NCBI GenBank assembly: GCA_945861645.1
Contig: CAMAVZ010000034.1
Coordinates: 1 to 15,912, forward strand
Direction: 5' to 3'
Length of the DNA: 15,912 bases
Source of the DNA: Opitutus sp. GAS368
GTDB taxonomy: Bacteria > Verrucomicrobiota > Verrucomicrobiia > Opitutales > Opitutaceae
A program made the position numbers and the translations under genes. Below are positions 6,903-15,912 of the stretch, piece by piece. Position 1 is the stretch's first letter. Each line of letters opens with the position of its first letter. The notes under the pieces are model-generated. The model saw only the letters and a list, made by a program, of their open reading frames with translations, made no database searches and was not told the origin of the DNA.

Positions 6903-9900
6903 ATGAAAAATAGACCCTCCCGCATCCCCTATCTTCACCTCCTTCTCGGGGTGAGTTTGTCCGTCCTGCCCCTGCGAGCTCTCGCCCAAACGACCGCGGC
7001 AGCCCCGGCCGGCTCATTGGATGAAACGATCGTCTTGAATCCCTTCGTGGTCACCCCTGACTCCACCAGCGGGTATTATGCGTCAGAGACTTTGTCGGGG
7101 ACGCAACTTAGGACTCCGGTCCGCAACCTGGCGAACCCGATCACGATTCTCACCGAGGAATTTATGAAAGATATCGGAGCGGTGAATTACGTGGAAGCCC
7201 TGGAGTTCATGCCCAGCACCCAAATGTTCAGGGGGGATTCTTCGGATACGGAAGGGGTCAGCAACCGCACCGGCACGCCTTACATGGTCCGCGGTTTCCG
7301 CGCGTCCACCCTGACCAATAATTTCTTCACCAGTGGCATCAAGACGGACAGCTACAACACCGAGACGCTGACCCAGTCCCGGGGACCCAATTCCCTGCTC
7401 TTTGGCTTGGGCTCGGTGGGGGGCGGTATCGATGCGACCCAGAAAGTGGGGAAATTCAACGCCAATAGTCACGGCATGGAAGTCCGCTTCGACTCCGAGG
7501 GTTCCAAGCGCGCCAGCGTGGACGTCAATCAGATCCTCATTCCCAAAAAGCTGGCGGCGCGCTTCGCCGCCGTGTCCGCCGATCAACGCACGCCGCGCGA
7601 CTTGCAATATTCCCGGCGCAATTCCGCCTATCTGAACCTGACGATCCAGCCCTTCAAAGGCGCGACCATCAACCTGAATGCGGAAGCGGGGAGAATGGAA
7701 GAGTCTATTCCCCGGTCCTACCTCGCCTATGACAGTGTTTCCGCCTGGTTGAACTATCCCGGGACCCCGTTCTCAAAAGCGAACCGGATCGACAACCTCC
7801 TCGTCGCTTCTGGGAGCACTGCGGCCCGTACTGTGGCCCAAAATAGAATAATTGGGGCTACCCAAACATTCAGTAATGAGAATTACCTCGTGTATATCAT
7901 GAATAATCCGCAGCTGGGCGTGCAGAATTGGAAATATAAATCCCGTGGTTCGGAGGCCTACGTGAACGGGAACACCTTTAATACGACCAGTATCTCAGAA
8001 TTAACCGTCGTGCCCGGGGTGAACTTCCCCTTGAGCACCATGGTGCCCGGACCGTCGGAACATTTTGATACTTTGTACGATAAGTATTCGGCCTCATGGG
8101 TGCAGCAGCTCCTTAAAACGACCTATCTTGAGGTGGCTGGAGCCTACGAAAATAGGTTCGCCGAGGACTGGCAGCCGATTCAACGGGGTGACTACGAGGT
8201 CTTTATCGACCCCAATTACTACCTCCCCACCCAACTGGCGTCGAGCAACCCGGATCCCACCAAACCGCTTAATCCGTATTTCGGGGTGCCTTATCTTGAG
8301 GGCAATTCCACGCTGCAGCGCCGCGACGAGGTGGTGAAACAGTTCCGGGCGACCCTGACCCACCAATTCGACCTGAGTCGCATTGAGCCCGTCAAGGGAT
8401 TTGATCTCGGCAAAATGACTCTGGTTGCTTTTCACTACTCTCGAGATACTGACAGCTATTTCTCCCAGGCGGAGGAAGCGGCCACGACCTCGCTGCGGAC
8501 GAACGGCGTCATTGATGCCCAAAGTAAGATTATCCGGCGCTACTATTTGACGCCGGGCCAACCCGTGCATTTCCCTGCTCTTGATCATCGGAACTCCGCA
8601 ATTAATCAGGCTGCTAACGCGTCGATTCCGGGCGGTGTTGTCCCATTCGTCTCGTCGGGCTATGTGAACATACTGAATCCAGTCTATGCGCCGGAAAACA
8701 CCAAGTCGTATGCCGCGATTGGCCAGTGGGAACTGTTTTCCCGCCGCTTGATCCTCACCGCGGGTATCCGACAGGACGATATCGAATCGAAGAACTTTCT
8801 GTTCACCAGGAATCCAGTCACCGCGCTTTTTGGCAACCGGGACGAGGGCGCGTTCAGTGCACCGACCAGTTCCTCCGTCCAAAACCACAACTTCGGTGCC
8901 GTGGTCAAGGTCACAAAGTGGCTTGATGTCTACGCCAATAGCTCGACGAACACCGTGGGCTTCGGTGGCACCAGATACAACATCTTCGGTGAACTTCTCC
9001 CCAATCAAGAGGGTGAGGGCTTCGATTTCGGCCTGCGCGGTTTCTTCTTCGATGACCGGGTGATCATGAAGCTCAATTATTTCAGTAACGAGCTTGTGAA
9101 CCGAGTCTCCGATCCCCTCCGCGATGGCCAGATCGGCATCGAGATGGCCCGCGCAAATGGCTATACCGAACGCTACACCGAAGGCATGGTCCTCAATGGC
9201 TATGCGAACAAGGTGGCCGGAGCACCCCGATTTGCCAACTACACGGGCAACCAACTCTGGTCAGACGTCGAGTCGGATAAGACCGAAGGTTATGAATTGG
9301 AGGCCACCATCAATCCCACCAAACAGCTGCGTTTGATGATTAACATCTCCTACAACGATTCGACGCTGAACAGCACCTACAAATTCACCCAGCCTTGGTA
9401 TGAACAGTACGTCAAGCCCTACCGCGATGACGCCGCCATTAAGGCGACCATCGCCAATCCCGCGTTCAATTCTACCCGGACCATCGGCGACTATATCGCA
9501 GGAATTGAACGTCGGTTGAATTACCATGGAGCCCAGGTCGGCGGCTCCCGGATTCGCGGCAACAACTGGATGGCGAATTTTGTCGGCAGCTACGCCTTTC
9601 ACCAAGGTCGGTTGAAAGGCCTGCGACTTGGCGGAGACCTGCGCTGGCGTGATGCTCCCACCATCGGCTACCCGGAAGTCGCCGGTACCTTTGATACAAA
9701 GAATCCGTTCACCGGCGCCGAATCCCTGATTACTAGCGCCTTTGCTAGTTATTCCTGGAAGACCACGATCCTGAACCGGAAAACAAACTGGGCGACTTCC
9801 CTGCGCGTGCGCAACGTCCTGAACGACGCTGATACGTATCCCCAAACCTCAGTCGATTACGGTAACGGCGTGCCGCACTATTTGCAGCGGATCTATGTCC

Positions 9901-11847: not shown

Positions 11848-15201
<3,354 letters not shown>

Positions 15202-15321
15202 GGGGCAACGCTACGCTGCGCTGGCGACCATGCAATCCCCCGCGTGATGAACGGTCTAAAAAACGTGATAAACGACGCCGGTGGCAGTGTAGCCCCGCGG
15301 GACGAAGGGAGGCGGGTCGGC

Positions 15322-15360
15322 TTACACGGACTCGAGCAACTTGTAGAGTCGGGCGACCAT
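15322..15360 (-). other. Orphan, synonymously diverged duplicate of the last 12 codons plus stop of htpG (MVARLYKLLESV*)
   Basis: Minus strand ATG GTC GCC CGA CTC TAC AAG TTG CTC GAG TCC GTG TAA encodes the same peptide as 15397-15435. Confidence 0.9.
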
Positions 15361-15386
15361 CCGCCTTCGCCAAGGCTACGGCAGAC
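15360..15386. repeat. REP-like palindromic unit TCCGCCTTCGCCAAGGCTACGGCAGAC
   Basis: Imperfect hairpin (TCCGCC...GGCAGA with inner GCC-AA-GGC); resembles an intergenic repeat I recall from Opitutaceae-like genomes (not checked). Confidence 0.6.
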
Positions 15387-15396
15387 ACGGTCGGGG

Positions 15397-15912
15397 CTAG
15401 ACACTTTCGAGGAGCTTATACAAGCGTGCAACCATGGGCGTGGCGTCTTCCAGCATGCCGGCGGAAATGAGGGCGTTATCGAGGATTTGCTCGGCGACGA
15501 GTTTGGCCTTCTCGGGCGCGGCGGTGTGTGTTGCGAAAAGCCGCTTCATCACCGCGGAGCGCGGATTGATTTCGAGATTTACGCGCTGCGGCATATCGGC
15601 TCCATCTTTATTCATGGCCTTCATCATACGGCGCATGTGAGCGGTCATAAATTTATCGGCATTAATTGCCAGAGCGGGAGAATCCACCAAGCGATCACTG
15701 GCCTTAACCTCGGCGACTCGTTCGCCGAGCGATGCTTTCATCCAAGTGGTGAGAGTTTTGGTGTCATCGGCGCTGAGGGCGCCTTCCGCTTGCGGAAGGT
15801 CCGTTAATTTTACATCGCCGTGATCCGCGGCGATGAGCTTCTTGCCGTCAAATTCGCGGACATTATTCATCACGTACTCATCGACGGGTTCGTAGCAGAA
15901 AAGGACTTCCAG
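15397..15912 (-). CDS. htpG: Molecular chaperone HtpG (Hsp90), C-terminal part; 5' end outside window
   Basis: Open frame from the window edge: LEVLFCYEPVDEYVM...SDRLVDSPA...MRRMMK...NLEINPR...EQILDNALISAGML...MVARLYKLL, matching Hsp90 middle/C-terminal motifs. Confidence 0.95.
   Translation of the reverse strand: MEVLFCYEPVDEYVMNNVREFDGKKLIAADHGDVKLTDLPQAEGALSADDTKTLTTWMKASLGERVAEVKASDRLVDSPALAINADKFMTAHMRRMMKAMNKDGADMPQRVNLEINPRSAVMKRLFATHTAAPEKAKLVAEQILDNALISAGMLEDATPMVARLYKLLESV

Follow-up and report, generated by a model that had tools for sequence, protein, structure and literature searches.

In Escherichia coli, the end of icd that is carried by prophage e14 and the native end of the gene differ mostly by synonymous substitutions, and phage 21 is a similar case at icd. 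According to the text of PMC6379469, the incoming e14 DNA supplies the 3' end of icd, which stays functional, and the native end (163 bp) stays on the far side as a pseudo-fragment. According to the text of PMC3240628, a gene-end fragment was present in duplicate in 56 of 60 E. coli clones after the integration of a molecule that carried this fragment and no more of the gene. The text of PMC3733652 describes Opitutus terrae as rich in GTAG-tagged repetitive extragenic palindromes (REPs), with the most intragenic copies, including those in RNA helicases, and it names the Rickettsia palindromic elements (RPEs) as palindromic repeats tolerated in protein-coding genes. The word "duplication" is absent from the main text of that paper. 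Here we describe the end of the heat-shock gene htpG in Opitutus sp. GAS368 (genome G000), on a stretch of 15,912 nt that is the entire contig C34 (CAMAVZ010000034.1) and is called the window below. The gene is followed by a palindromic repeat and then by a second, differently encoded copy of its own end. It is probable that a 75-nt block of gene end and repeat was imported into htpG and that the native end was displaced downstream. A search of the text of published papers found none that describes gene ends imported along with a palindromic repeat and native ends displaced by them, and none on the 14-nt core motif of the repeat.

The copy that terminates htpG (the in-use end) and the downstream copy (the orphan) both translate to MVARLYKLLESV followed by a stop codon. 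They differ at 14 of 39 bases and, by hand count, in 10 of 13 codons, among them a serine codon (AGT against TCC), without a single residue change. The starts of the copies have only ATGGT in common, and CCGACC comes after both stops. Codons ending in G or C make up 7 of 12 in the in-use end and 11 of 12 in the orphan. The peptide and its stop were preserved in none of 2,000,000 random placements of 14 changes, which contradicts divergence of a non-coding copy in place. The differences fall in all base classes, as judged by eye, and no residue varies, unlike the adenine-confined pattern of a diversity-generating retroelement. Among the 5632 open frames of at least 100 aa in G000, htpG alone has an echo of its tail at 12 of 12 residues within 300 nt downstream. 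The next-best echoes, at 9/12 (an antisense frame in a repetitive gene) and 8/12 (a 25-nt tandem repeat), are other phenomena, and the reverse-complement control reached a maximum of 7/12. A 730-aa open frame on the minus strand of contig C91 of G000 has its final 25 nt, stop included, three to four times in tandem; this nucleotide-level repeat gives serial copies of the last 8 residues and is distinct from the case of htpG. The coordinates of the features are listed in Table 1.

Table 1. Features at and next to the end of htpG in the window, all given on the minus strand.
Feature	Position	Strand	Description
In-use htpG end	15397..15435	-	MVARLYKLLESV + TAG; starts ATG, ends GTC TAG; 12 codons + stop
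Orphan, probably the displaced native htpG end	15322..15360	-	same 12 residues + TAA; ATG..GTG TAA; presumably untranslated
Spacer between the copies	15396-15361	-	36 nt; holds the palindromic repeat
Putative imported block	15361..15435	-	75 nt: in-use last 12 codons, TAG and 36-nt spacer; missing from G045
Palindromic repeat	15360..15392	-	left arm, GTAG..CGAA loop region, right arm
22-nt core of the repeat	15381-15360	-	last base is also the A of the orphan's ATG
htpG, 3' part	15397..15912	-	171 codons; gene truncated by the contig end; TAG stop 15399-15397; open frame
Probable native intergenic flank, orphan to next gene	15202..15321	-	homologous sequence follows the htpG stop of G045 and the orphans of G016 and G004
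Protease-like gene downstream, 1117 aa	11848..15201	-	context and synteny marker, outside the feature

The locus was compared across 65 genomes of the genus, most of which are metagenome bins. The 58 genomes with an assembled htpG end formed the set for the htpG counts, and kinship between genomes leaves the counts non-independent. Genome G045, one of the closest relatives, encodes an HtpG that is 100% identical to that of G000 over two partial matches, and a protease-like protein that is 96% identical. Its single htpG end agrees with the G000 orphan at 35 of 39 positions (hand count) and with the in-use end at 27 of 39. Upstream of this end, G045 is 94% identical to G000 over 150 nt, with zero differences between -8 and -54 nt; after it come the same flank and the same next gene as in G000, with no repeat and no second copy. 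Relative to G045, G000 carries a clean 75-nt insertion that consists of the in-use end, its TAG and the spacer with the repeat. On the left its border is sharp to within 7 nt, and no flank is co-converted. The part of htpG in the window has 98% amino-acid identity to full-length frames of 611-614 aa in G016 and G004. The ortholog of the protease-like gene comes after htpG or its orphan in G016, G004, G045, G070, G042, G062 and G024.

The in-use end is shared across the genus in a pattern different from that of the gene that it terminates. A 25-nt stretch of it occurs exactly in 6 of the 65 genomes (G000, G016, G004, G070, G047 and G043), once in each and in htpG only. G000 is 83% identical to G070 and G047 over the 150 nt upstream (30-31 of 50 third positions), yet 38 of 39 positions agree in the in-use end (11 of 12 third positions). 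Among all six carriers, the in-use ends are identical at 36-39 of 39 positions, the spacers share one variant of the left arm of the repeat, and the block is of nearly constant length in five of the six, the repeat of G043 having a longer loop. The orphans of the six carriers are mutually different and resemble ordinary GC-rich native ends. The clade-specific codon choice AAG TTG is found in the orphan or native end of G000, G016 and G045. In the protease marker, amino-acid identity to G000 is 78% for the carrier G070 versus 80% and 79% for the non-carriers G042 and G024; G047 and G043 have no ortholog of this gene. These comparisons point to the orphan as the native htpG end and to another species of the genus as the source of the block. 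The original prediction, made from the window alone, had anticipated much of this: a recoded, peptide-identical second end, the exclusion of a neutrally decaying tandem duplication, a native end displaced by incoming DNA that brought a diverged replacement, a left joint near the shared ATGGT, now placed no more than a few bases from it, and relatives with the GC-rich end alone, of which G045 is an example.

The original prediction had also considered that the pair could be an assembly chimera, and this is ruled out by contigs, not raw reads. A 479-nt contig from a different study (X5) spans 15150-15465 with 2 substitutions and a 1-nt gap, so the pair is bridged independently of the G000 assembly, which has 116 contigs and is 84% complete. 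A 331-nt contig from a possible source run (X1) spans 15150-15475 with zero differences. One X3 contig joins 15277 to 15406 and agrees with G045 in the letter at 15442, as an empty-site allele would, but it proves nothing.

The repeat in the spacer is about 30 nt long and has two 6-nt arms (TCCGCC and GGCGGA) that flank a GTAG...CGAA segment. Its core, with up to two mismatches, is present in 58 of the 65 genomes (the reversed-pattern control gave one hit), with a maximum of 69 copies in one genome, 36 in one orientation and 33 in the other. Some copies stand behind stop codons or tRNA genes, and others are in frame within genes. The arms are fully paired at all six positions in 72 of 111 distinct copies, against 28.6 expected from shuffled partners, and pairing is kept in compensated variants, in which both arms are changed (TCCTCC/GGAGGA, 7 copies; TCAGCC/GGCTGA, 5; TCGTCC/GGATGA, 5). 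The DNA of the G000 spacer and that of the whole 114 nt folds no better than shuffles (z of -0.16 and -0.12), so the support for the hairpin is the covariation across copies. The start of the spacer, CGACC (within 15361-15396), is complementary to GGTCG of the orphan (within 15350-15360), which adds five pairs to the hairpin. Such flank pairing was rejected as a general feature, since complementarity of at least 5 nt is found in 16 of 104 copies versus about 8 expected, a weak enrichment. A search of Rfam with positions 15150-15500, at E up to 10, returned a chance microRNA match only and no family for the repeat. Neither strand has a sigma-70-like promoter between 15100 and 15500, and the gene strand lacks a terminator-like site there.

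G000 and G016 have two copies of the repeat each, G004 has one and G045 has none. The second copy in G000 is in frame within a helicase-like gene (contig C49, ~9349-9373, outside the window). It had been taken for a coincidental look-alike and was revised to an old in-frame insert in the light of the text of PMC3733652. The helicase variant recurs in several genomes of the genus and fits the intragenic RNA-helicase repeats reported for O. terrae. In some species, a purL-like gene (L047, L049, L141) has two copies of the repeat, one in frame within the coding region (read as RSLGEGG) and the other after the stop, where an orphan accompanies it. None of 13 loci examined among 25 Y1_Tnp transposase matches (in G043, G047, G073 and G008) is flanked by the repeat within ~1-2 kb; the only look-alikes near them are two, with 3 and 4 mismatches. 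No Y1 match was found in G000 and its clade has few copies of the repeat, so local transposition is unlikely. GTAG hairpins of other families form inverted pairs around Y1 genes in G073 (L348, L349) and G008 (L184), in the classic layout of REPs and REP-associated tyrosine transposases (RAYTs). Several systems of palindromic repeats thus coexist in the genus.

By exact matching, the 22-nt core was located in at least 120 stretches (L227-L346, e.g. L232, L271 and L295) that come from bins and isolates labelled as Acidobacteriota, Alphaproteobacteria, Bacteroidota, Lentisphaerota, Kiritimatiellia and others. These copies have unrelated flanks, some of them AT-rich, and usually the same left arm; some of the bins may be contaminated. 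A match of 22 specified bases across phyla is far beyond chance. Tandem arrays occur at L235, L248, L272, L273 and L280, in which the left arm (a 12-nt unit) and the right arm with the loop (an 18-nt unit) are multiplied separately; some of the arrays have the whole repeat every 32 nt instead.

The arrangement seen in G000 is frequent at htpG. The repeat or a sister variant lies right behind the htpG stop in 17 of the 58 genomes, and an orphan follows the repeat directly in 16 of the 17, the exception being G062. Of the 16 orphans, 13 were recognised by score and those of G004, G078 and G056 by eye. The junctions fall at about codons -6/-7, -12 and -19 to -22 of the gene. Some loci are layered, with two orphans in series in G011 and G063 and two in G043; two or three layers are nested at these loci. 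The architecture is present in two single-contig genomes, one of which, G073, has it at htpG. In G024, the in-use end is followed by 8.2 kb of ordinary genes, a decayed orphan and then the syntenic protease gene, and the joint of this long version is without the repeat. Pfam searches with six open reading frames (ORFs) in and beside the 8.2 kb gave no integrase or transposase; the matches were to PEP-CTERM, a hybrid histidine kinase, a LuxR-type regulator and PATR, and two of the six ORFs had no match.

Other genes show the same architecture. A stop-anchored echo of the tail of the upstream gene accompanies 9 of 111 repeat copies, compared with 0.05 expected, and 5 of 104 copies away from htpG. 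A broader test for peptide echoes was positive for 22 of 245 copies versus 0.3 expected; part of these were inspected, and some are tandem arrays of the repeat itself. The architecture is present beside the repeat at at least four genes other than htpG. At three further genes, relatives provide empty sites for comparison, and there the orphan runs into the native flank, with the new end, its stop and the repeat upstream. At one of these three genes, the end in G065 agrees with the G047 orphan at 53 of 60 positions and with the G047 in-use end at 39 of 60. The body of this gene is 74% identical between G047 and G065 and the orphan with its flank 89%, so the incoming tract seems to extend far upstream there, by more than 200 nt. 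The purL-like gene of G070 has 13 identical residues in its two ends with 9 codons synonymously different, and all 4 codon differences of a 10-residue pair from a Verrucomicrobia bin that does not belong to the genus are synonymous (both hand counts). The duplicated lengths range from 6 to 22 codons, and most pairs differ at 20-40% of bases. The pair at a tolC-like gene of G047 is identical at 27 of 27 positions; it looked like a young event, but the structure is also present in G043, which makes its age uncertain. Repeat copies at L079, L130, L072, L039 and L293 have peptide echoes of 8-20 residues in their flanks, some of which may be coiled-coil repeats; L130 and L087 are one gene in two species. 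Nucleotide-level tandem duplications that include the repeat were observed at L344.

Several expectations of the original prediction did not survive these comparisons. It had viewed the block as the 75-bp scar of a shrunken element, and the block is made of the new end and a dispersed palindromic repeat and is of near-constant length in five of the six carriers. It had singled out the end of htpG as a special target, and at least four other genes have the same architecture beside the repeat. The scan that it proposed for further peptide-identical, diverged tails within this genome gives htpG alone. It had also named relatives with an integrase- or transposase-bearing island between the copies; G024 has 8.2 kb between the in-use end and the decayed orphan, and Pfam gave no integrase or transposase in the six ORFs searched there.

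The two members of a pair differ consistently in codon composition. In ten hand-counted pairs, the in-use end has fewer codons ending in G or C than the orphan in nine and ties with it in one. The counts, in-use versus orphan, are 7/12 and 11/12, 7/13 and 12/13, 7/13 and 13/13, 11/19 and 15/19, 13/20 and 16/20, 14/18 and 16/18, 8/12 and 9/12, 9/12 and 10/12, 12/20 and 16/20, and 6/8 and 6/8. Within GC-rich genomes, in-use ends at filled sites have a mean of 8.75 such codons in 12, compared with 10.37 in 12 for functional ends at empty sites (Mann-Whitney p = 0.0003, the relatives not being independent). Native ends are near-saturated in codons ending in G or C, so a synonymously different partner must be richer in A and T. 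Alike direct repeats 75 nt apart would be deleted, and unlike pairs would persist. The A/T-rich third positions of the in-use copies may thus result from the saturation of the native ends and the survival of unlike pairs.

The orphans decay. In the orthologous orphans, G016 has two residue changes and G004 five; the older, second orphan of G011 contains indels, and those of G073, G047 and G070 have one or two changes each. Orphans are 6-22 residues long, and the offsets from the in-use end to the orphan, calculated from the coordinates, are 73, 74, 75 and 106 nt, with the orphan in frame only in G000. Fixed spacing in all relatives, which the original prediction had linked to a functional peptide, is therefore not observed, and G045 lacks a second copy. 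The orphan is not maintained by selection, and a peptide function is unlikely. The intact orphan of G000 is the least altered copy, with few substitutions so far.

The filled and empty sites show the outcome of the event, and a route for it can be proposed. The block probably entered htpG of the lineage of G000, G016 and G004 from another species of the same genus. It was added at codon -12 without replacing the sequence beyond, and the native 12 codons and stop now stand, presumably untranslated, behind the repeat. HtpG is unchanged because the block supplies the same residues in other codons, and the copies differ only synonymously because each had served as a working gene end in a separate lineage until the two were brought together. 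Within the reading frame there is no seam at the left joint, and the right joint is always located 0-5 nt past the 3' arm of the repeat, at an arbitrary point of the recipient gene; no common motif ahead of the junctions was detected by eye. The left side was presumably joined through htpG homology, either without a seam or with a donor tract that varies in length. The anatomy resembles one-sided homologous combined with illegitimate recombination, or integration of the single-crossover type, and the hairpin-forming repeat may provide the preferred end or break point.

The regularity of the block invites an explanation in which the repeat is the agent. The repeat and the adjoining gene end could form an active, gene-preserving mobile cassette that is moved by an enzyme of its own, such as a nuclease or transposase that recognises single-strand hairpins, the carried end finding the orthologous site so that the insertion is neutral to the host. 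The clean left border in G000, the near-constant length of the block in five of six carriers with in-use ends identical at 36-39 of 39 positions, the constant right boundary and the repeated events at htpG would all fit, and so would the stem kept by compensated changes and the exact core across phyla, as in a mobile sequence. We nevertheless consider the cassette improbable, because this block is found only at htpG, no conserved target motif precedes the junctions, the donor tract at another gene seems to begin more than 200 nt upstream, the 8.2-kb version in G024 has neither the repeat at its joint nor a mobility gene, and none of the 13 examined Y1 loci is flanked by the repeat, G000 having no Y1 match. 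The polarity could also be reversed in the clade of G000, with the in-use end, rich in A/T-ending codons, being native, the repeat and the end of a GC-rich relative having been inserted behind its stop, and G045 having later lost the native end and the repeat through a deletion between the copies. The codon composition of the in-use end is that of the gene body in this clade and that of the orphan matches GC-rich relatives; the clade is nearly devoid of other repeat copies, as if the repeat itself had been imported; and the G045 assembly branches at htpG. Reversal is quite improbable when set against the AAG TTG codons shared by the orphan or native end of G000, G016 and G045, the continuity of the orphan with the native flank of the clade, and the clearly foreign character of the same in-use end in G070, G047 and G043. 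It would also require a deletion between copies of 64% identity that left a pure orphan-type end, which is unlikely.

Another reading is that the repeat inserted on the spot, that the gene end was duplicated as a long target site or in tandem, and that the two copies then diverged there. It would account for the identical tolC-like pair of G047 and for the duplications at L344. For htpG it is very improbable: 14 differences in a non-coding copy would have had to spare every residue, the lengths vary from 6 to 22 codons, diverged species have the in-use end in common and their orphans are lineage-specific, and G045 has neither repeat nor second copy. It is scarcely credible that the orphan functions as a peptide of 12 residues, or as a regulatory element under selection for its peptide. 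The orphan of G000 does start with ATG, is intact and lies in frame with htpG at 75 nt, and in G005 the orphan and the in-use end share a lineage-specific lysine; against this, the orphans of G016, G004, G011, G073, G047 and G070 have residue changes, indels or lost stops, lengths and offsets vary (73, 74 and 106 nt are out of frame), and the same architecture is found at unrelated genes.

The import of the block and displacement of the native end has its own difficulties. The direction of the event in the clade of G000 depends mainly on G045, which could descend from a filled allele, a deletion between the copies having removed the in-use end and the repeat. The htpG contigs of G045 (C264 and C250; L171 and L172) overlap by exactly 140 nt, which marks a branch in the assembly graph, possibly hiding a second htpG allele in the sample. 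The two contigs part right after ...GGCATGCT, near the -20 junction of other species. The class-I in-use end, with 7-9 of 12 codons ending in G or C, fits the htpG body of the G000 clade (0.65-0.69) and looks foreign only in G070, G047 and G043 (body 0.93-0.98), and the block may have arisen in a lineage like that of G000. Only two markers bear on whether the six carriers form a clade. Homologous exchange between sequences of 83% identity does not usually leave a left border as sharp as 7 nt, and five or more separate events at a single gene among 58 genomes are many for a passive by-product. The clean insertion in G000 and the many events at htpG leave room for an active, repeat-linked mechanism.

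The import of gene ends together with a repeat would be a route by which short palindromic repeats enter coding sequences without damage to the gene. It would leave datable fossils of native gene ends, and DNA exchange between species of a genus could be counted directly, in tracts of some tens of bases. Caution is also due in annotation, as small peptide-identical ORFs behind genes may be displaced ends and not micro-genes. If the repeat is an active partner, the target choice of this mobile element would follow a new logic, and the copies of the core across phyla would give it broad relevance. We speculate, with considerable doubt, that the repeats are miniature elements that spread across phyla with an adjacent gene end (or start), which guides them to the orthologous gene and repairs the interruption. 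Such an element would be neutral on arrival, would home by borrowed host coding sequence and not by the target site of an encoded enzyme, and would leave a trail of displaced native gene ends.

The comparison with described systems places the locus between several of them. It differs from the target-site duplication of transposons, which is of fixed length and initially identical, since the pairs here are 6-22 codons long and mostly 20-40% different. It differs from the single-strand transposition of IS200/IS605 in that no conserved 4-5-nt target, which a guide beside the hairpin would match, was seen by eye before the junctions and that the complementarity of the flanks is weak (16/104 versus ~8). 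RPEs add residues in frame, and the text of PMC3733652 does not report them with a replacement gene end or an orphan. The short GC-rich palindromes, their many dispersed copies mostly just downstream of genes, and the occasional copy in frame inside a gene are features shared with GTAG-tagged REPs and RAYTs. In REPs, GTAG or CGTC stands at one end of the palindrome, and here GTAG lies between the paired arms; the 22-nt core occurs across phyla, and the repeat is not assigned to the REP/RAYT systems because it flanks none of the 13 Y1 loci examined, out of 25. As with e14 in icd, the insert supplies the in-use end and the native end lies beyond it, which is supported by the comparison of filled and empty sites at htpG and three other genes. 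Prophage e14 has its own integrase and defined att sites, whereas the inserts described here are 75 nt long (once 8.2 kb) and contain no recombinase gene. There is also no identical core at both joints, only ATGGT being shared by the starts of the copies in G000, the junctions vary, and many genes are affected. A seamless homologous joint on one side, a non-homologous joint on the other and a donor from another lineage are shared with homology-facilitated illegitimate recombination and with single-crossover integration. In contrast to those laboratory plasmid events, for which the published text gives a frequency of ~3e-10 per cell, the events described here are natural and recurrent, have a diverged orthologue as donor and have a joint that is tied to one repeat.

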